Shown here: one piece after another, positions 1 through 8,346 of the stretch
How the letters are laid out: each line of letters begins with the position of its first letter
Numbering within the stretch: the first letter of the stretch is position 1
Source: a virus
Taxonomy: Duplodnaviria > Heunggongvirae > Uroviricota > Caudoviricetes
Length of the DNA: 8,346 nt
Reading direction: 5' to 3' (one strand)
Virus record (IMG/VR): IMGVR_UViG_2602041549_000008
Made by a program: the position numbers and the translations under genes
The notes under the pieces: model-generated
The model's input: only the letters and a program-made list of their open reading frames with translations
Databases searched by the model: none
What the model was told of the DNA's origin: nothing

Positions 1-1
1 T

Positions 2-130
2 GTCCTGATTAGCTTACTGTCATGGGGACTTTTCGGCCAACGGCTGGACCTGCCAGCCATTATAGGCATGATGTTGATTTGTGCCGGTGTGTTGGTTATT
101 AATCTATTGTCACGAAGCACACCACATTAA
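2..130 (+). CDS. emrE: 3' end of a small multidrug resistance (SMR) efflux protein, EmrE-like; gene starts upstream of the window
   Basis: Frame 2 is open from the window edge and reads VLISLLSWGLFGQRLDLPAIIGMMLICAGVLVINLLSRSTPH, ending at TAA 128-130. The hydrophobic helix plus short polar tail matches my memory of the EmrE C-terminus. A hairpin and T-tract follow immediately. Partial gene, identity from recollection only. Confidence 0.75.
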   Translation, partial: VLISLLSWGLFGQRLDLPAIIGMMLICAGVLVINLLSRSTPH

Positions 131-161
131 AAATAATTTGTTTCTAAACTACTAAAATATG

Positions 162-201
162 GAGGCTCTTATATTTATATGAGCCTCGTTTTATGCTTTT
201 T
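162..201 (+). terminator. Rho-independent terminator candidate downstream of the emrE-like gene
   Basis: Inverted repeat GAGGCTC (162-168) / GAGCCTC (181-187) around an AT loop that can pair further, followed by GTTTTATGCTTTTTGTT (T-rich). It sits about 30 nt after the stop codon. Confidence 0.55.
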
Positions 202-386
202 GTTAATGTCTTTATTTTTTTATGTATTCTTTTGTGCTTTCAAGATTATGGCGTAAGAAAATTGCAATACGATTATTGTTGTATATTCAAGATAATGTGA
301 CCTTAATTGTCTTTTTAAATAAAAATTAAACAAAAATTATATCCCACCACTAATGTTTATAAAAGCATACGTTAGCAGGTGTCACC

Positions 387-1913
387 ATGAAAAAAGCCAT
401 AGCATATATGCGATTTTCATCACCAGGTCAGATGTCTGGCGACTCATTAAACCGACAGAGAAGACTTATTGCTGAATGGTTAAAGGTAAATAGTGATTAT
501 TATCTTGATACCATAACATATGAAGATTTAGGATTAAGTGCATTCAAAGGAAAGCATGCACAATCAGGAGCTTTTTCGGAATTTTTAGATGCTATAGAGC
601 ATGGTTATATATTGCCAGGAACTACATTGTTAGTTGAAAGTCTGGACAGACTTTCAAGAGAAAAAGTCGGTGAAGCGATTGAACGTCTGAAATTGATTTT
701 GAATCACGGTATTGATGTTATAACTCTTTGCGACAATACAGTCTATAATATTGACTCTTTGAATGAGCCATATTCATTAATAAAAGCCATACTTATAGCA
801 CAAAGGGCAAATGAAGAAAGCGAGATAAAGTCAAGTCGGGTTAAATTATCATGGAAGAAAAAACGGCAGGATGCACTGGAATCAGGTACGATTATGACGG
901 CGTCTTGTCCGAGATGGCTCTCCTTAGATGACAAAAGAACGGCTTTTGTTCCAGACCCCGACAGGGTGAAAACTATTGAGCTAATTTTTAAACTCAGGAT
1001 GGAAAGGCGCTCATTGAATGCAATAGCCAAGTATTTAAATGATCATGCTGTAAAGAATTTCTCAGGAAAAGAAAGTGCATGGGGACCTTCTGTAATTGAA
1101 AAATTATTAGCGAATAAAGCTCTGATAGGTATATGCGTACCTTCATATCGTGCAAGAGGGAAAGGAATAAGTGAAATCGCGGGCTATTATCCCAGAGTCA
1201 TATCAGATGATTTGTTTTACGCTGTACAGGAAATTCGGTTGGCACCTTTTGGTATTAGCAATAGTAGCAAGAATCCTATGCTAATAAATCTACTTCGAAC
1301 AGTTATGAAGTGTGAGGCTTGTGGTAATACCATGATTGTTCATGCGGTATCTGGAAGTTTGCATGGCTATTATGTTTGTCCGATGAGAAGATTACATCGA
1401 TGTGACAGGCCATCAATAAAAAGAGATTTGGTTGATTATAATATCATTAATGAATTGCTTTTTAATTGTAGCAAAATTCAACCAGTTGAAAACAAGAAAG
1501 ATGCTAATGAAACTTTAGAGTTAAAAATTATTGAGCTTCAGATGAAAATTAATAATTTAATCGTTGCATTGTCTGTCGCGCCTGAAGTTACAGCTATAGC
1601 AGAGAAAATAAGACTATTAGATAAGGAATTACGAAGGGCTTCGGTATCATTGAAAACTTTGAAGAGTAAAGGTGTAAATTCATTCAGTGATTTTTATGCT
1701 ATTGACTTAACCAGTAAAAATGGACGAGAGTTATGCCGTACACTTGCCTATAAAACATTCGAAAAAATCATAATTAATACGGATAATAAAACCTGTGATA
1801 TCTATTTTATGAATGGCATTGTTTTTAAACACTATCCTTTAATGAAAGTAATATCCGCCCAGCAGGCGATAAGTGCTCTCAAATATATGGTTGATGGTGA
1901 GATTTATTTCTAA
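387..1913 (+). CDS. ybcK: Large serine recombinase (resolvase/invertase-type catalytic domain + recombinase domain + zinc ribbon + coiled coil), 508 aa
   Basis: ORF-track ORF with ATG at 387 preceded by AGGTG (377-381). The N-terminus AIAYMRFSSPGQ...R fits the serine-recombinase catalytic motif (Y-x-R-x-S...Q). The C-terminal part has a Cys cluster CEACGNT...YYVCP...HRC typical of the recombinase zinc ribbon, followed by a coiled-coil-like stretch (LELKIIELQMKINNLIVALS). Length is typical of large serine recombinases. Strongly AT-rich codon usage. Confidence 0.9.
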   Translation: MKKAIAYMRFSSPGQMSGDSLNRQRRLIAEWLKVNSDYYLDTITYEDLGLSAFKGKHAQSGAFSEFLDAIEHGYILPGTTLLVESLDRLSREKVGEAIERLKLILNHGIDVITLCDNTVYNIDSLNEPYSLIKAILIAQRANEESEIKSSRVKLSWKKKRQDALESGTIMTASCPRWLSLDDKRTAFVPDPDRVKTIELIFKLRMERRSLNAIAKYLNDHAVKNFSGKESAWGPSVIEKLLANKALIGICVPSYRARGKGISEIAGYYPRVISDDLFYAVQEIRLAPFGISNSSKNPMLINLLRTVMKCEACGNTMIVHAVSGSLHGYYVCPMRRLHRCDRPSIKRDLVDYNIINELLFNCSKIQPVENKKDANETLELKIIELQMKINNLIVALSVAPEVTAIAEKIRLLDKELRRASVSLKTLKSKGVNSFSDFYAIDLTSKNGRELCRTLAYKTFEKIIINTDNKTCDIYFMNGIVFKHYPLMKVISAQQAISALKYMVDGEIYF

Positions 1914-2111
1914 ATAATGATCTTGGATTTTAAGTTATGCTATGATGATAAAGTGCAAGACAGAATTAATTATCTTTAACGAAACTTAATGGGTAATTAC
2001 TTTGTTTGCTCCCACAAGCGAGTTTTGTACGGCTGTATTGGGGTAGTAAATGAGCTATACAATCTTAATCATTTGTTAGGTGAGAACTCTTGGTCGCAGA
2101 TTCAAATACTG

Positions 2112-2161
2112 AAAATACGTGACAAATTATTATGAGCAAAATGGTGTATGTCACGTATTTT
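2112..2161. repeat. Perfect 13-bp inverted repeat AAAATACGTGACA / TGTCACGTATTTT with a 24-bp spacer, in the ybcK-ybcL intergenic region
   Basis: Read directly: left arm 2112-2124 and right arm 2149-2161 are exact reverse complements. A flanking TTCAAA...TTTGAA extends the symmetry imperfectly. No convincing T-tract follows. Confidence 0.7.
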
Positions 2162-2293
2162 GAATGGTAGGTTAAAAAATAACACCGACTTTCGTAGGTA
2201 TTACTAATAATAAAGCAGAGTTTTTAATAGTATCAATGTGCTTTGTGTATATTGTGGCAAATAATTGGGTTGGGGGTACAATTGTGATTGCTT

Positions 2294-2323
2294 TTGCATG
2301 AACATTGCGCCTTTATGCATAAT
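2294..2323 (+). promoter_or_regulatory. Candidate sigma70 promoter for ybcL-ybcM (-35 TTGCAT, 18-bp spacer, -10 CATAAT)
   Basis: Hexamer match by eye, about 55 nt upstream of the ybcL ATG. Not unique in this AT-rich region, so low confidence. Confidence 0.25.
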
Positions 2324-2376
2324 GAGATAAAGGAATATCAAATAAAATAACGATAGGTCATAACAAAGAGGTTTTT

Positions 2377-2928
2377 ATGAAAACACTTATCGTTTCAACT
2401 GTATTGGCATTCATAACATTTTCTGCGCCGGCTGCAGCATTTCAGGTCACTAGTAATGAAATAAAAACAGGAGAGCAACTTACAACGTCTCATGTCTTTT
2501 CTGGATTTGGGTGTGAAGGTGGTAATACATCGCCCTCATTAACCTGGTCTGGTGTTCCTGAAGGTACCAAAAGCTTTGCCGTAACTGTATATGATCCAGA
2601 TGCACCTACAGGCAGTGGTTGGTGGCATTGGACTGTTGTTAATATTCCAGCAACAGTAACATATTTGCCCGTTGATGCAGGAAGACGTGATGGAACAAAA
2701 CTGCCGACTGGTGCTGTTCAAGGCCGAAATGATTTTGGCTATGCTGGGTTTGGTGGCGCATGTCCTCCTAAAGGAGATAAACCACATCATTACCAGTTTA
2801 AAGTATGGGCTCTAAAAACTGAAAAGATTCCTGTAGATTCTAACTCCAGCGGAGCGTTAGTTGGTTATATGCTTAATGCTAATAAAATCGCAACCGCTGA
2901 GATAACACCAGTTTATGAGATAAAGTAG
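2377..2928 (+). CDS. ybcL: Secreted (periplasmic) PEBP/RKIP-family protein, 183 aa, with N-terminal signal peptide
   Basis: ATG 2377 with AGAGG Shine-Dalgarno 5 nt upstream. N-terminus MKTLIVSTVLAFITFSAPAAA is a classic Sec signal peptide. PEBP signature motifs are present: YDPDAPTGSGWWHW and KPHHYQF. Confidence 0.92.
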   Translation: MKTLIVSTVLAFITFSAPAAAFQVTSNEIKTGEQLTTSHVFSGFGCEGGNTSPSLTWSGVPEGTKSFAVTVYDPDAPTGSGWWHWTVVNIPATVTYLPVDAGRRDGTKLPTGAVQGRNDFGYAGFGGACPPKGDKPHHYQFKVWALKTEKIPVDSNSSGALVGYMLNANKIATAEITPVYEIK

Positions 2929-2937
2929 GGTGAGAGT

Positions 2938-3735
2938 ATGCTGGCAAGAGGTAAGACTAACTTAAAGATCGAAGAAATACGGATGCATAAACATCATGAG
3001 ATTCATAGGGTTAAGCCTCTTATGCCAGCTTTGTGTCGTATCCGTCAGGGAAAGAAAGTTATCAATTGGGAGACGCATACTTTAACTGTTGATAATAATC
3101 AAATAATATTATTTCCTTGTAGTTATGAATTTTATATTGAGAATTATCCTGAAGCAGGGCTTTATCTTGCAGAAATGCTTTACTTACCCATTGATTTAAT
3201 TGAGAGGTTCCAAAAACTTTATACGGTAACTGATCAAATACGTAACAAAACAAGTTTCTTTTTACCTCAGAATCCTGAGTTAATATATTGTTGGGAGCAA
3301 CTAAAAACATCTGTTTCCCGAGGCTTCTCAACTAAAATTCAGGAGCACTTAGCAATGGGCGTTCTACTTTCGTTAGGAGTGAATCATGTTAATCATTTAC
3401 TTTTATCATATAGTAAACAATCATTGATAAGTCGTTGTTATAACCTGCTGCTATCCGAACCCGGCACAAAATGGACAGCAAACAAGGTTGCACGATATCT
3501 CTACATTTCTGTTTCTACATTACATCGCCGTCTAGCAAGCGAGGGGGTAAGTTTCCAAAGTATACTGGACGATGTGAGGTTAAATAATGCGTTGTCTGCT
3601 ATACAAACGACGGTAAAACCTATAAGCGAGATTGCCAGAGAAAATGGTTATAAGTGTCCTTCTCGTTTTACTGAAAGATTTCATAATCGTTTTAATATAA
3701 CACCAAGAGAGATAAGAAAAGCTTCCAGAGAGTAA
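2938..3735 (+). CDS. ybcM: AraC/XylS-family transcriptional regulator, 265 aa
   Basis: Starts 10 nt after the ybcL stop, so likely co-transcribed. The C-terminal 100 aa ([45 protein letters not shown]...[20 protein letters not shown]) has the two helix-turn-helix units of AraC-family proteins. The true start could be Met16 (2983); the ORF-track start was kept. Confidence 0.88.
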
Positions 3736-3799
3736 AAGTGTTTTAAGAAGGAGCAATTCTATCGATTTTGATTTTGGGAAATCAACACGGCATAATTAT

Positions 3800-3828
3800 G
3801 TCACCGGAGCCTGAACAACTCCGGTGAC
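3800..3828 (+). terminator. Perfect 10-bp stem / 9-nt loop hairpin (GTCACCGGAG...CTCCGGTGAC) about 65 nt after ybcM; possible terminator or boundary element
   Basis: Arms 3800-3809 and 3819-3828 are exact reverse complements. The downstream TTCTGCGCT is only a weak U-tract. It lies at the transition from AT-rich to GC-richer sequence. Confidence 0.3.
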
Positions 3829-3851
3829 TTCTGCGCTAAACGGGGACGTTT

Positions 3852-3953
3852 ATGCGCACATACAATCCAACCTCTCTTCTCCATTCACAGATGCAGAAAT
3901 GCACCTGCGATATTTTGCATCCAGCGTTTGATCTCTGCGGAGGTGAAGCGTGA
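3852..3953 (+). CDS. ylcH: Small nin-region protein, 33 aa ([33 protein letters not shown])
   Basis: ATG 3852 to TGA 3951-3953, with the stop overlapping the GTG start of the next gene (GTGA). Position between ybcM and ybcN and the 33-aa length match my recollection of ylcH. No strong Shine-Dalgarno. A short ORF, so moderate confidence. Confidence 0.45.
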
Positions 3954-4405
3954 ACCTCCCACAAGATGGTATCAAATTGCATCGCGGTAACTTCACCGCT
4001 ATCGGTCGGCAGATCCAGCCTTATCTGGAGAACGGCAAATGCTTTCGCATGGTGCTTAAACCGTGGCGCGAGAGACGCAGTCTTTCCCAGAATGCACTCA
4101 GCCACATGTGGTACAGCGAAATCAGTGAATACCTCATCAGCAGGGGTAAAACGTTCGCCACTCCAGCTTGGGTAAAAGATGCTCTCAAACACACATATCT
4201 CGGTTATGAAACCAAAGACCTGGTTGATGTCGTAACCGGTGATATCACCACTATCCAGTCGTTACGCCATACCTCCGATCTTGATACCGGAGAGATGTAT
4301 GTCTTCCTGTGTAAGGTTGAAGCCTGGGCGATGAATATTGGTTGCCATCTGACTATTCCGCAGAGCTGCGAGTTCCAGCAGCTCCGCGACAAGCAGGAGG
4401 CGTAA
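3950..4405 (+). CDS. ybcN: NinB/Orf-family protein (lambdoid recombination-associated; YbcN-like DNA-binding protein), 151 aa
   Basis: GTG start at 3950 with GGAGG (3939-3943) upstream. The protein [15 protein letters not shown]...[16 protein letters not shown]... shares the R-S-L-x-Q-N...W core that I recall from lambda NinB. Confidence 0.88.
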
Positions 4406-4575
4406 TGGCTACACCGCTTATTCGTGTCATGAACGGACACATCTACAGAGTACCAAATCGTCGTAAGCGTAAACCTGAGCTGAAGCCATCCGAAATACCA
4501 ACACTGCTCGGGTATACCGCCAGCCTGGTTGATAAAAAATGGTTGCGACTGGCAGCAAGGAGGAGTCATGGCTGA
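4405..4575 (+). CDS. ninE: NinE-family small basic protein, 56 aa
   Basis: ATG 4405 overlaps the ybcN stop (TAATG); AGGAGG at 4395-4400. The product [28 protein letters not shown]...[13 protein letters not shown] resembles lambda NinE (basic RKRKP motif, W-L-R). The ORF-track ORF from 4342 is an upstream extension of the same frame. Confidence 0.8.
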   Translation: MATPLIRVMNGHIYRVPNRRKRKPELKPSEIPTLLGYTASLVDKKWLRLAARRSHG

Positions 4576-4858
4576 TTTGAGAAAAGCAGCGCGTGGTCGG
4601 GAATGCCAGGTAAGAATCCCTGGCGTATGTAATGGCAACCCTGAAACGTCTGTACTGGCACATATCCGGCTGACTGGATTGTGCGGCACCGGTACCAAAC
4701 CGCCAGACCTGATTGCCACCATTGCATGTTCTGCCTGCCACGACGAAATCGACCGCCGCACACATTTTGTCGATGCTGCATATGCAAAAGAATGCGCGCT
4801 GGAAGGTATGGCGAGAACACAGGTTATCTGGCTGAAAGAGGGGATTATTAAGGCGTGA
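4568..4858 (+). CDS. ybcO: YbcO-like Cys/His-rich (zinc-binding, DUF1364-type) protein, putative nuclease, 96 aa
   Basis: ATG 4568 with AGGAG (4561-4565) upstream; overlaps the ninE 3' end by 8 nt. The product [37 protein letters not shown]...[11 protein letters not shown] has a C-x7-C...C-x2-C-H metal-binding pattern. The ORF-track start at 4529 is an upstream extension. Confidence 0.85.
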
Positions 4859-5217
4859 ATACCTACAGCATCACATTACCCTGGCCTCCGAGCAATAATC
4901 GCTATTACCGCCATAATCGCGGGCGCACGCACGTCAGCGCAGAGGGGCAGGCATACCGCGATAACGTCGCCCGAATCATTAAAAACGCAATGCTGGATAT
5001 CGGCCTGGCTATGCCTGTGAAAATCCGCATTGAGTGCCACATGCCGGATCGCCGTCGCCGTGACCTGGATAATCTGCAAAAAGCCGCTTTTGACGCACTC
5101 ACTAAAGCAGGTTTCTGGCTGGATGATGCTCAGGTCGTTGATTACCGCGTTGTGAAGATGCCTGTTACCAAAGGTGGGAGGCTGGAACTGACCATCACCG
5201 AAATGGGGAATGAATGA
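4855..5217 (+). CDS. rusA: RusA-family Holliday junction resolvase (endodeoxyribonuclease), 120 aa
   Basis: GTG start at 4855 overlapping the ybcO stop (GTGA). The product [38 protein letters not shown]...[30 protein letters not shown] matches my memory of E. coli RusA, including the acidic D-x-D-N segment. Confidence 0.93.
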
Positions 5218-5354
5218 TGTTTGAGTTTTATATGGCAGAACTTCTTCGCCACCGCTGGGGGCATCTGCGCTTATATCGTTTCCCCGGTTCTGTTTTGACC
5301 GATTACCGAATACTGAAGAATTACGCCAAAACCCTGACAGGAGCAGGAGTATGA
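5214..5354 (+). CDS. ylcG: Small nin-region protein, 46 aa ([46 protein letters not shown])
   Basis: ATG 5214 overlaps the rusA stop (ATGA); a second in-frame ATG lies at 5217. Size and position between rusA and the Q gene match my recollection of ylcG. Confidence 0.6.
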
Positions 5355-5439
5355 AGTCAGAGATAACAATCAACTAATACTGTTTTGTTGATTTTTGCTT
5401 GTAATTGGCGTTCTGGTCTGATTTTTGTGGAGTAAGTTG

Positions 5440-5823
5440 ATGCGTGATATTCAGATGGTTCTTGAGCGTTGGGGAGCGTGGGCGGCTAATAATCATGAAG
5501 ATGTGACCTGGTCGTCCATTGCCGCCGGTTTTAAGGGATTAATTCCTTCAAAAGTAAAATCTCGCCCGCAATGTTGTGACGATGACGCGATGATCATTTG
5601 CGGGTGCATGGCCCGTCTGAAAAAGAACAACAGCGATTTGCACGATTTATTAGTAGATTATTATGTAGTCGGTATGACATTCATGTCACTGGCAGGTAAG
5701 CATTGCTGCTCTGATGGTTATATCGGGAAAAGGTTACAGAAGGCTGAGGGCATAATTGAAGGGATGTTAATGGCATTAGATATCCGGTTAGAGATGGATA
5801 TCGTTGTTAATAACTCTAATTAA
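5440..5823 (+). CDS. quuD: Q-family late-gene transcription antiterminator (phage 82/21-type Q), 127 aa
   Basis: ATG 5440 with GGAG 8 nt upstream. The product [22 protein letters not shown]...[17 protein letters not shown]...HCCSDGYIG has the Cys-rich zinc-binding pattern of 82-type Q proteins. It sits at the end of the nin block, directly upstream of the late/lysis region. The ORF-track start at 5425 is a TTG extension. Confidence 0.88.
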
Positions 5824-5856
5824 TATGCCAATTGTTTACTAAAAATTATTAAAAAT

Positions 5857-5874
5857 GGGGCGTTGCAACGCCCC
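5857..5874 (-). terminator. GC-rich palindrome GGGGCGTTGCAACGCCCC; candidate terminator for - strand transcription (nmpC) or part of the late-promoter/qut region
   Basis: Perfect 18-bp palindrome (7-bp GC stem, 4-nt loop). On the - strand it is followed by ATTTTTAATAATTTTT (reverse complement of 5841-5856). On the + strand it is followed by A-rich sequence, so it is unlikely to terminate + strand transcripts. Confidence 0.35.
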
Positions 5875-5962
5875 CAAAAATAAAGGGTAATATATAACAG
5901 AAGGTTTATATAGTTAGAAGCAAGGTTGTGCTCCTAAAGGAAGTGGCTTGAGGGAGCCACTT

Positions 5963-6002
5963 ATATGTTGGGGAGGCAAAGCCTCCCGCAACATATCTTT
6001 TT
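5963..6002 (+). terminator. Rho-independent terminator candidate between quuD and the 3' end of nmpC (possible late-leader terminator, tR'-like)
   Basis: Long interrupted hairpin ATATGTTG-GGGAGGC-AAA-GCCTCCC-G-CAACATAT (5963-5996) followed by CTTTTTC (T-run 5998-6002). Preceded by a second perfect 8-bp hairpin AAGTGGCT...AGCCACTT (5941-5962). Confidence 0.5.
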
Positions 6003-6012
6003 CGTAATCAGA

Positions 6013-7110
6013 TTAGAACTGGTAAACCAGACCTACAGCAACGATGTCATCAGTGCTTACACCGAGTGCTTTAGTGAAGTCATTTTTGTCAAGCAGGTTG
6101 ATTTTGTAATCAACGAAAGTAGACATATTTTTGTTGAAGTAATAGGTTGCACCTACATCAACATATTTGACTAAGTCCTGATCGCCCCATACTCCAAGAT
6201 CCTTACCTTTAGATTGCAGGTAAGCAACGGACGGACGCAGACCGAAATCGAACTGATATTGTGCAACAGCTTCGAAGTTTTGAGCTTTATTAGCAACGAA
6301 GTGATCAGCAAATACAGTCATATTCTGGGTTTCAGAATAGGTAGTGGCCAGGTAAATGTTGTTAGCGTCATATTTCAGACCTGCGGCCCAAACTTCTGCA
6401 TTTTTACCGGAAGCAAATACTTCAGGAAGAACTTTCCCTGCATTAACTTGAGTGTCGGTACGATCAGATTTCGCATAAGTTGCACCGATACCGAACCCTT
6501 CGTATTCATAGGTAGCAGAGAAACCGAAGCCATCACCGTTACCTTCGGTGTAGTTATCGAAATCGCTACGATCGTTTTTGCCTTGGTACTGAGCAGCAAA
6601 GTTCAGACCATCAACCAGACCAAAGAAGTCGTTGTTACGATAGGTTGCAACACCAGTGGTGCGACCAGTCATGAACACATCTGTTTGGGTCCAGGTATCG
6701 CCACCGAATTCTGGCAGTACGTCAGTCCACGCACCGATGTCGTATGCTACACCGTAGTTACGGCCGTAATCGATTGAGCCGTAGTCACCGAATTTCAGGC
6801 CTGCAAATGCAAGACGGGTTTTGTCTTTGGAGGAACCTTGAGATTCAGCGCGGTTGCCTTTGAATTCATATTCCCACTGACCGAAACCAGTCAGTTGATC
6901 GTTGATTTGGGTTTCACCTTTGAAGCCAAGACGGGCATAAGTAGTATCACCATCATCTGCATCATTAGAGGAGAAGTAGTGCTTAGCATTAACTTTCCCG
7001 TACAGATCCAGCTTGTTACTGTCTTTATTATAAATTTCAGCTGCCTGAGCAGACATCGCCATCAGTACTGATGCAGCTACAGCAGAAATTGCCACTGTTA
7101 ATTTTTTCAT
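6013..7110 (-). CDS. nmpC: General diffusion outer-membrane porin of the OmpC/OmpF/PhoE/NmpC (Lc) family, 365 aa precursor, apparently intact
   Basis: The - strand ORF has an N-terminal signal peptide [23 protein letters not shown] then the mature start [17 protein letters not shown], typical of enterobacterial porins. It ends in ...VGLVYQF, the conserved C-terminal Phe of beta-barrel outer-membrane proteins. The ORF-track start at 7170 adds 20 residues; the internal ATG at 7110 gives the canonical signal peptide. Confidence 0.9.
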
Positions 7111-7536
7111 CGTGAGCCCTTTTTTTGAACTATTATTAAAAAATGATGTCACTGCGCGATAAATATTCATCTAATCAATGTGATTATTTCAAGATGTAAG
7201 TTTTAGTTTCTCATTTAATTTGTGAAGTAGATCTCTATTTTTATCTGAACTTTTTCTATCGAAACCTATTTATGGCTCTTATTTGAACAAAAATAAACCT
7301 ATTAGCCAATTTATATTAACGGCTGTTATTTATAAGTGCTCTGTAATTTGAAGGTTCAATTTAAATCGGCTAAAAATAACACTGGAAATTATTTGTTGGT
7401 TATTTGTTGAGATTTGCTTATGTATTTGTAGTGGTGTTTTCAATACTCGGTAGCATTCTCGCAAATATCATTTTGTGGTTTACGTACGTAAAAACTTGGT
7501 TATGCTGTTAAGAGTGGTTACTTCGTCACACAGCTT

Positions 7537-7570
7537 AAACCCGCCGTCGAGCGGGTTTTTCCATTTTTTG
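7537..7570 (+). terminator. Strong Rho-independent terminator on the + strand, about 130 nt upstream of the holin gene
   Basis: AAACCCGC-CGTCGA-GCGGGTTT hairpin (stem 7537-7544 / 7551-7558, GC-rich core) immediately followed by TTTTTCCATTTTTT. Confidence 0.6.
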
Positions 7571-7697
7571 AGTCTCGATATTAGCTGATAACCCAATACC
7601 TGAGTTATTCACTGACTCCGAGTCTGTTACGTTTCTGCTTTTTTGCGATACGTTGTATTCCCTCAATTTACACCCGCTTTGTCTGCGAGGTGGGGTT

Positions 7698-8310: not shown

Positions 8311-8346
8311 TGGATTTGCCCCTATATTTCCAGACATCTGTTATCA
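8311..8346 (-). mobile_element. Terminal inverted repeat of an IS2-like (IS3-family) insertion sequence, partial; element body lies beyond the window end
   Basis: TGGATTTGCCCCTATATTTCCAGACATCTGTTATCA matches my recollection of the IS2 right-end inverted repeat read as its reverse complement. The junction falls inside the endolysin reading frame. Confidence 0.7.

Follow-up and report, generated by a model that had tools for sequence, protein, structure and literature searches.

We analyzed a stretch of DNA of 8,346 nucleotides (the window) from a Caudoviricetes record in IMG/VR (IMGVR_UViG_2602041549_000008), focusing on ybcK, a gene for a recombinase of 508 amino acids. The window covers the early-right (nin) region of a DLP12-type lambdoid E. 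coli prophage and contains, in order, the 3' end of emrE, ybcK, ybcL, ybcM, ybcN, ninE, ybcO, rusA, ylcG, quuD, a porin gene on the minus strand, and essD. ybcK belongs to the delayed-early operon, with the replication genes on one side and Q on the other, and the RefSeq name for positions 387–1913 is "ybcK: recombinase family protein". GC content is 31–45% over the first 3.7 kb of the window and ~50% beyond; ybcK itself has a GC content of 35.5%, as compared with 45–47% in the 5 kb to either side (loci L003, L004 and L007), and most orthologues have the same bias. The gene and the domains of its product lie at the following positions:

387–1913, plus strand: ybcK coding sequence, an open reading frame (ORF) with an ATG start that encodes 508 amino acids; the Ser11 codon is at 417–419.
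396–869, plus strand: resolvase-type catalytic domain (amino acids 4–161) plus the long helix that follows it (PF00239, E = 5.5e-19).
957–1238, plus strand: recombinase domain, amino acids 191–284 (PF07508, E = 2.3e-14).
1290–1457, plus strand: zinc-ribbon domain, amino acids 302–357, with four invariant cysteines (PF13408, Zn_ribbon_recom, E = 7.9e-08).
1488–1670, plus strand: coiled-coil helical hairpin, amino acids 368–428, inserted after the zinc ribbon (AlphaFold model).

All three Pfam matches to YbcK are far beyond the curated cut-offs. In an alignment of YbcK with 17 relatives that share 28–97% identity, residues R9, S11, D87, R88 and R91 are invariant, and we take these to be equivalent to R8, S10, D67, R68 and R71 of gamma-delta resolvase. 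The zinc-ribbon cysteines C309, C312, C331 and C339 are likewise invariant in this 18-sequence family alignment. An AlphaFold model of YbcK (mean pLDDT 81.4) consists of a catalytic domain, a long helix (residues 128–166), a recombinase domain, a zinc ribbon, and a hairpin of two helices (residues 368–397 and 401–428). Foldseek aligned the model over its full length with the SPbeta integrase (9dxd, E = 4e-19) and with the Bxb1 and phiC31 integrases (also 9iu2 and 9tep), with only 14–19% identity in structural alignments to integrases of this type. The fold of the catalytic domain also matched the catalytic domains of TP901-1, gamma-delta and Sin. Consistent with these matches, a profile of the YbcK family matched the SPbeta integrase (3e-17), the C-terminal domains of the A118 integrase (4kis, 1e-15) and the TP901-1 catalytic domain; a search of PDB sequences with the single YbcK sequence gave no match at an E-value of 1e-3. 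Based on the Pfam domains, the invariant catalytic and zinc-binding residues, the model, and the full-length fold match, we conclude that YbcK is a complete large serine recombinase (LSR), with every structural feature that defines the group. An earlier reading of the window from its letters alone (the sequence-only reading) had ascribed a catalytic serine, a zinc ribbon and a coiled coil to the 508-amino acid protein, and on this point the Pfam matches, the alignment, the model and the Foldseek matches all agree; the resolvase, recombinase and zinc-ribbon domains that it had proposed to look for by HMM search were all found, and the catalytic Ser and Arg residues are present in the alignment.

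We identified full-length orthologues of YbcK at 36–61% identity across the Enterobacterales. Because the next closest relative of the E. coli protein is only 60–61% identical to it, the E. coli ybcK lineage is single and shallow. In one clade, represented in six genera (Mixta, Serratia, Leclercia, Rahnella, Erwinia and Klebsiella), the recombinase gene is 17 bp from a fragment encoding the C-terminal part of HofB, and host-specific sequence gives way sharply to conserved element sequence ~60 bp upstream of the recombinase start codon. In locus L117 (Serratia fonticola), the N-terminal HofB fragment (ending ...TGHLVL) is 7.4 kb away, with ppdD beyond it. These junctions mark a clean site-specific insertion into hofB. 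In a second clade, the recombinase gene directly adjoins a yecE fragment that encodes the N-terminal part; phage tail genes, including a tape-measure gene, follow beyond. The relatives at the edges of hofB and yecE are 36–39% identical to YbcK. In Atlantibacter, Yersinia, Erwinia, Ewingella and one Pantoea, the recombinase gene is the last gene after the tail-fibre genes, and the next host gene is ssrA in Atlantibacter, lepA in Erwinia and nrfA in Y. rohdei. Further copies are found in one mobilisable element and in two plasmid records (L111 and L113). Copies internal to prophages occur in Pantoea, in Atlantibacter-type phages and in Candidatus Pantoea alvi; an orthologue with 42% identity is in the same slot as ybcK in a lambdoid prophage of Pantoea, which encodes a tyrosine integrase of its own. 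These gene contexts mark the ybcK family as a genuine integrase family of prophages and small islands.

Several of these loci have features of separate interest. hofB is split at the codons for a conserved TGHLVLSTLHT motif in six enterobacterial genera. The L117 island (9945–17302, 7.4 kb) contains the LSR gene, two AbiTii-family genes and a gene for a small resolvase, with similar loci in L116, L118, L120, L123 and L126, and resembles a mobile islet of defence genes that has a defined target. yecE, which encodes a DUF72 protein, is truncated by a prophage with a related serine integrase in Pantoea and Mixta (L122, 9464–9949; also L119 and L121). A possible link to the yedK locus was rejected: the SRAP gene beside the L107 recombinase gene adjoins purB, not the yedK locus.

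In four loci (L018, L125, L016 and L127), partial duplications of the interrupted gene bracket the recombinase gene. These duplications are suggestive only, because the patterns vary: L127 does not fit an insertion with restoration of the target, and the L018 fragment is absent from four sister loci. Apart from these cases, repeats around the orthologues were at chance level. In L125 (Candidatus Pantoea alvi; 9232–9693 and 12152–12859), the recombinase block is antisense to the early operon and lies between an intact P gene and a degenerate copy of P residues 77–222. In L016 (a Citrobacter koseri mobilisable element; 8145–9812 and 12651–13573), the recombinase gene is flanked on one side by an intact pilV-like (shufflon-type) gene and on the other by a second, broken copy of the 5' part of that gene. 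In L127 (Pantoea coffeiphila; 11740–12625 and 12991–13876), a perfect tandem duplication of ~1.25 kb is found downstream of the recombinase gene. In addition, copies of a 248-bp stretch of a small phage gene lie on either side of a 6.9-kb block, beside a gene for a cytosine methyltransferase.

We compared phages of the Atlantibacter type with and without a recombinase gene. In five loci, the block that contains the 60% identical orthologue has one and the same first base (TCAGTTTAAAATATAC, ~120 bp before the start codon). A methylase stop codon precedes the block in four of the five, and a displaced 5' fragment of a DUF1367 gene precedes it in the other. The distance from the methylase stop codon to the region upstream of DinI is 2,128 bp in L103, which has the recombinase gene, as compared with 64 bp in L273 and L291. 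None of 80 phage contigs that carry DUF1367 has the recombinase gene. DinI was considered as part of the unit and rejected: DinI and DUF1367 are contiguous in five contigs that lack the recombinase gene, and the unit therefore comprises only the recombinase gene and a gene for a 59-amino acid KGG protein. The Atlantibacter-type unit is thus a presence/absence polymorphism, similar in size to a 2,097-bp segment that includes E. coli ybcK (see below). The tails of the Atlantibacter-type and E. coli units are unrelated in sequence. Note that in L018 a SIR2-domain gene (5755–7695), possibly a defence gene, lies in the early region of an Atlantibacter-type lambdoid phage, upstream of the recombinase unit.

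We next consider the distribution of ybcK in E. coli and its phages. Among 5,426 complete E. coli genomes, 1,424 contain ybcK, with 1–3 copies each that are nearly all chromosomal; the gene is full length in 1,398. A query consisting of P-ren-emrE-ylcJ-ybcK was covered to at least 80% in 1,393 of the 1,398 genomes with full-length ybcK, and the viral-contig and genome collections yielded 82 E. coli-type loci, all with the same left context as far as their sequence was available. ren, emrE and ybcK occur together in 12 phage records, and ren occurs alone in 144 others. The carriers include complete records deposited as phages: 4A7, 1W, 3W, D2, Perceval, Turner and the PhiR series. The phages and prophages that carry ybcK have their own tyrosine integrase gene at the prophage end, several of them with an excisionase gene, and are integrated at different host sites (tRNA-Arg in L001, icd in L003, and ybhC). 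ybcK is ~10 kb inside the prophage, away from the prophage/host junction, and we found no permuted prophage with ybcK at an end in the 1,398 genomes or the 82 sampled loci. Because tyrosine integrases occupy the prophage ends and the host sites vary, YbcK is not the carrier prophage's own integrase; this bears out the expectation of the sequence-only reading that a lambdoid prophage integrates with a tyrosine integrase. For annotation, this means that finding a serine recombinase gene within a lambdoid prophage is no ground for calling it the prophage integrase. ybcK in E. coli is a fixed passenger in the accessory-gene slot of one lambda-like phage lineage, and its constant left context argues against current mobility, as the earlier reading had anticipated for a gene always fixed in place.

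The coding sequence is well preserved. ybcK was intact in 87 of 88 E. coli-type copies, which represent 53 distinct alleles; one copy has a premature stop codon, and rare deletion variants occur in L181 and L050. Nei-Gojobori dN/dS values were 0.047–0.06 for the most divergent pairs of ybcK sequences (dS ~0.19), with a mean of 0.088 over 1,000 pairs. These ratios show strong purifying selection on ybcK, which is very probably a functioning gene and no decaying relic.

The sequences that flank ybcK were compared among strains, including L002, a chromosomal locus that lacks ybcK and is described below. The following features were distinguished:

1–130, plus strand: 3' end of emrE, the constant upstream neighbour of ybcK in phages (phage and genome loci).
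132–137, no strand: AATAAT hexamer, the left copy flanking the 2.1-kb segment (junction alignment with L002).
138–386, plus strand: 5' flank of ybcK, with the annotated small ORF ylcJ (179–329); the breakpoint with L002 is at 137/138.
162–187, plus strand: hairpin resembling an intrinsic terminator (GGAGGCUC...GAGCCUC, then UUUU; RNA fold), ~30 nt past the emrE stop codon and overlapping the ylcJ start.
1914–1985, plus strand: 3' flank of ybcK, ~70 bp, found with the gene in each of the two E. coli lineages; diverged apart from small islands of conservation (alignment).
1986–2234, plus strand: tail specific to the window lineage, with a 48-amino acid ORF (1989–2135); missing in L002 and in lineages with alternative cargos.
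2206–2211, no strand: AATAAT hexamer, right copy (junction alignment with L002).
2235–3765, plus strand: ybcL (2377–2928) and ybcM (2938–3735), one of several interchangeable cargos (Pfam PBP and AraC-type HTH matches).
3766–3800, plus strand: start of the conserved ybcN (nin) module, the rejoining point of every cargo variant, with a dyad TTGATT-N6-AATCAA and CATAAT.

The 5' flank (138–386) would be the expected place of an element boundary or att site; positions 241–386 are as conserved as coding sequence, and the junctions of relatives are 17–300 bp upstream of the recombinase start. The DNA 3' of ybcK differs between lineages: ybcL-ybcM in the window type, a gene for an alpha/beta hydrolase in phage 4A7, genes for a P22AR-C protein and a hypothetical protein in L007, and 310 bp of other DNA in the O157 prophage L003. 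The ybcL-ybcM cargo is replaced in L003, L004 and L007 with the right boundary unchanged, and all cargo variants rejoin the window sequence at 3766–3768, with or without ybcK. In L008, which has neither emrE nor ybcK, there are unrelated genes between ren and the shared right boundary; because these are held within the same boundaries, we regard the interval from ren to ybcN as a general swap slot. Two candidates were rejected. The breakpoint 1922/1923, 9 bp past the ybcK stop codon, appeared to be a sharp site shared by three cargos; diverged homology continues for ~70 bp, and the three alternative cargos share 57–270 bp with one another, and we therefore interpret this position as module divergence, with no scar. 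The recombinase and its cargo were also considered as a conserved unit; the hydrolases of 4A7 and L113 are only 28% identical over 100 amino acids, and none of the E. coli ybcK cargos recurs elsewhere.

Some features near ybcK are noted here in their own right. The ylcJ start codon is within the loop of the terminator-like hairpin that follows emrE, and several records call ylcJ frameshifted; ylcJ may not be a real gene. In the dyad and CATAAT at the start of the ybcN module (3768–3800), the stem is kept and the six spacer bases differ in all five variants. This dyad, which includes a promoter-like match at 3768–3796, is also present in L008, despite the lack of emrE and ybcK there, and may act as a promoter, as an operator or as a hairpin. 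Some 50 bp upstream of emrE (L001 11735–11770, outside the window), a TACAAT box lies between the two arms of a perfect 10-bp inverted repeat (GTTCAAACTG...CAGTTTGAAC); the repeat is kept in both the phage and the chromosomal copies of emrE, and may be the emrE promoter or operator. At the far end of the window, the porin gene (6013–7170, minus strand, nmpC/ompD-like) is intact, and has an IS5 insertion in K-12-type records. The last 36 bases (8311–8346) match the end of an IS2/IS3-family element found on many plasmids and chromosomes, and the prophage in this strain is interrupted within or just past the start of rrrD.

In 2,628–2,629 genomes, emrE is followed directly by ybcL, at a chromosomal locus between fliE and yedK; Nissle 1917 and KFu019 are examples of strains with such a locus. 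As compared with the window, this L002-type locus lacks 138–2234 (2,097 bp) between emrE and ybcL; it also lacks 3953–5724 and 5822–7069, and it is 84–90% identical to the window. With AATAAT as a common core, the predicted empty site aligned through the L002 junction with a score of 147, better than with the BLAST endpoints (121.5 without the core); this is weak evidence for a core, because the hexamer occurs five times in 2.4 kb. Two further candidates were rejected: H110/L181, a candidate for an L002-type locus with part of ybcK left in it, turned out to be a random deletion that affects another prophage, and the chromosomal junction of L002 is not the ren/emrE module boundary, since the two are ~26 nt apart and their match is explained by the emrE promoter region. 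As a separate observation, the fixed remnant between fliE and yedK (L002 7720–10381, E. coli ST540) consists of emrE-ybcL-ybcM and small pieces of quuD and the porin gene; because it is present in about half of the complete E. coli genomes, the emrE gene of most strains is at the fliE-yedK site, not in DLP12.

The sequence-only reading had called the recombinase an orphan with no evident site or partner, and our searches agree with that description. We detected no direct or inverted repeats above chance in positions 1–4100 of the window, and the literature searched contained no published site or partner. Recombination directionality factors have no common sequence signature, and small ORFs near ybcK (ylcJ, 179–329, and the 48-amino acid ORF, 1989–2135) gave no lead as candidate genes for such a factor. 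PADLOC defence-system models gave no match for YbcK, YbcL, YbcM or EmrE at an E-value of 0.01. Overall, ybcK shows no sign of present-day movement in E. coli, and we found no recombination sites for it there.

We tentatively favor, with somewhat less than even confidence, an account in which YbcK is the integrase of a small nested unit that became lodged in the accessory slot of an ancestral lambdoid phage and is now inherited with the phage. The unit would be ~2.1 kb in length (window ~138 to 2211–2234) and would consist of ybcK and short flanks. It would have been inserted by the LSR next to the accessory gene emrE, in the ren-ninB slot, and would since have been inherited with the phage lineage and passed between phages by ordinary phage recombination. 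By analogy with the relatives, its sites, if they survive, may be in the immediate 5' flank of ybcK. Enzymes of the LSR family bind as dimers to two short att sites of ~40–50 bp, make staggered double-strand breaks around a 2-bp core, rotate their subunits, and religate the DNA. YbcK would be expected to work in the same way: dimers would bind the two att sites, Ser11 would make the staggered breaks around the 2-bp core, and subunit rotation would then exchange the half-sites before the ends are religated. We favor this account because the enzyme is intact, selected and distinct from the prophage integrase, its relatives are integrases, a 2.1-kb unit is polymorphic in Atlantibacter-type phages, a parallel segment (138–2234) is missing from some E. 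coli loci, and the gene is AT-rich relative to its surroundings. Of the two possibilities raised by the sequence-only reading, the nested mobile element is therefore plausible but unproven: the integrase contexts of the relatives, the presence/absence unit, the L002 locus and the base composition speak for it, and the lack of current movement speaks against it.

Several observations weigh against a nested unit. The difference between 64 bp and 2,128 bp in the Atlantibacter-type phages is a replacement, not a clean single-site insertion. The non-coding flanks of the orthologues have no motif in common, with matches confined to the 5' end of the coding sequence, and the first 4,100 positions of the window contain no att-like repeats or dyads. 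The L002-type locus is an old, decayed prophage remnant and perhaps no empty site. The segment missing from it begins with the terminator-like hairpin 30 nt after emrE. With this hairpin and a promoter-like dyad of its own, emrE has the appearance of a complete unit of promoter, gene and terminator; because the lost segment includes the likely emrE terminator, L002 may represent a deletion. Comparative genomics, which had been proposed as a means to find empty-site alleles, yielded only this multiply deleted remnant, and no empty junction at ≥95% identity was found in the 5,426 genomes. Strain KFu019 has both ybcK and an unfilled L002-type junction, and the predicted circle junction had no match in viral or metagenome collections. 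Phage records never contain emrE without ybcK, and the unit could therefore be larger than we propose. The main unexplained point is why an element that never moves should be under such strong purifying selection.

Two other explanations stay alive because of this combination of strong selection and no visible movement. YbcK may serve the phage itself, as a second integrase for an alternative attachment site or by acting on DNA elsewhere (a host site or a competing phage), and may be kept because it improves lysogeny or competition. This is unlikely, though a serious contender: it would fit purifying selection that extends over dS ~0.2, the presence of ybcK in complete deposited phages such as 4A7, 1W, 3W, D2, Perceval, Turner and the PhiR series, its place in the delayed-early operon, and the 42% identical orthologue in the same slot of a Pantoea prophage that has its own tyrosine integrase. 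A reported effect of ybcK overexpression and knockout on sabinene tolerance in BL21 (PMC7181518) points the same way, but has no mechanistic link to recombination; moreover, no prophage in the 1,398 genomes or 82 loci is permuted with ybcK at an end, no defence-system model matched, and no candidate target sequence was identified. Alternatively, ybcK could once have been the integrase gene of another phage or island, brought into the ren-ninB slot by illegitimate or homologous mosaic recombination with the loss of its att sites, and retained through linkage or because it has some role apart from recombination. The swapping of unrelated genes in the ren-ybcN interval (L008), the interchange of cargos 3' of ybcK up to the same right boundary with or without ybcK, the standard promoter-gene-terminator layout of emrE, the many relatives that are terminal prophage genes and so possible donors, and the failure to find sites are all consistent with such a capture. 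We nevertheless consider it doubtful, since dN/dS values of 0.05–0.09 with all catalytic and zinc-binding residues retained would be unexpected for a recombinase without sites, and the block with the 60% identical orthologue has a discrete, reused left end.

The remaining explanations have far less to commend them. That ybcK is an inert relic of a defective prophage, without function, is very unlikely: DLP12 is defective in K-12, and L181, L050 and the copy with a premature stop codon show that ybcK is occasionally damaged, but an inert relic is contradicted by the 87 of 88 intact copies, the 53 alleles, dN/dS values of ~0.05–0.09, and the presence of the gene in complete phage genomes. The sequence-only reading had also suggested that YbcK acts locally, to invert or excise a nearby segment; the ybcL-ybcM cargo, for instance, could then be part of a genetic switch. 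The only observation in line with such a switch is that the DNA 3' of ybcK varies among strains from ~70 bp past the stop codon. The variants are different genes that share decayed sequence, not flipped or excised forms of one segment; every piece has the same orientation in all 88 loci, where reverse-strand matches were to insertion sequences only. Together with the chance-level direct and inverted repeats in positions 1–4100, and with no recent precise deletion or empty site in 5,426 genomes, this makes a local invertible or excisable segment scarcely credible, and that part of the earlier reading is not supported.

A wider form of the nested-unit account is also conceivable, although we think it rather improbable. 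LSRs of the YbcK type would define minimal units of ~2 kb, little more than the LSR itself, that are parasitic on temperate phages (in the nin region or after the tail-fibre genes), insert just past the stop codons of accessory genes, and continue to pass, during lytic growth, from one co-resident or co-infecting phage to another. Such movement would account for the strength of purifying selection even though chromosomal snapshots show the gene in a fixed position.

Our data place ybcK in an enterobacterial clade of large serine integrases with readable targets (hofB, yecE and prophage ends), and indicate that the E. coli gene is strongly selected although stationary. If active sites exist, E. 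coli and its phages would have in YbcK a native serine integrase, whose use in genome engineering would be of practical interest, and ybcK would concretely exemplify the nesting of a mobile unit within phage genomes. If there are none, the recombinase would be kept for another role. YbcK is listed in a gene table as "Predicted recombinase YbcK, DLP12 prophage" (PMC9504249), and a study in which ybcK overexpression raised and knockout lowered the sabinene tolerance of BL21 called the gene function-unknown (PMC7181518). Our literature search found no paper that tests YbcK activity or defines its sites, and nothing specific on serine recombinases in lambdoid nin regions or on integrases that target hofB. 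ybcK was already annotated; the literature searched seems to contain no description of its clade, of the targets in other genera or of its behaviour in populations.

YbcK can be compared with several known systems. Like the Pin, Gin, Cin and Hin invertases, it is prophage-borne and has a serine-recombinase catalytic domain. Those enzymes are ~190 amino acids in length with a C-terminal helix-turn-helix, are encoded near tail-fibre genes, and act on an invertible segment flanked by inverted repeats; by contrast, YbcK has 508 amino acids with recombinase and zinc-ribbon domains, is encoded in the early region, and has no associated inverted repeats or inversions. The ybcK region resembles the "morons" of lambdoid phages in being AT-rich, in its interchangeable content between fixed module boundaries in the ren-nin slot, and in the promoter-like dyad and terminator of emrE. 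Morons usually encode host-fitness factors, however, and the product of ybcK is a complete, selectively maintained site-specific recombinase. TnpX (Tn4451), TndX (Tn5397) and Ccr (SCCmec) are LSRs that mobilise small non-phage units, with the recombinase gene at one end beside a few passenger genes. This is the layout that we infer for the 2.1-kb units and the ~7-kb hofB islands. Elements of the Tn4451, Tn5397 and SCCmec type are several kb larger, with multiple or well-defined sites and detectable circular forms, whereas the E. coli ybcK unit was seen in a single context, and the search for its circle junction gave no match. As compared with the large serine integrases of phages, YbcK is distant in sequence and internal to a prophage that has a tyrosine integrase, and the literature searched names no attP, attB or directionality factor for it. 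Nevertheless, YbcK has the same domain order and full-length fold as the integrases of SPbeta (SprA/YokA), Listeria phage A118, Bxb1, phiC31 and TP901-1, and its relatives are found, as these are, at the edges of elements against truncated host genes. We conclude that the position of ybcK is unusual for an LSR gene, but not unprecedented.

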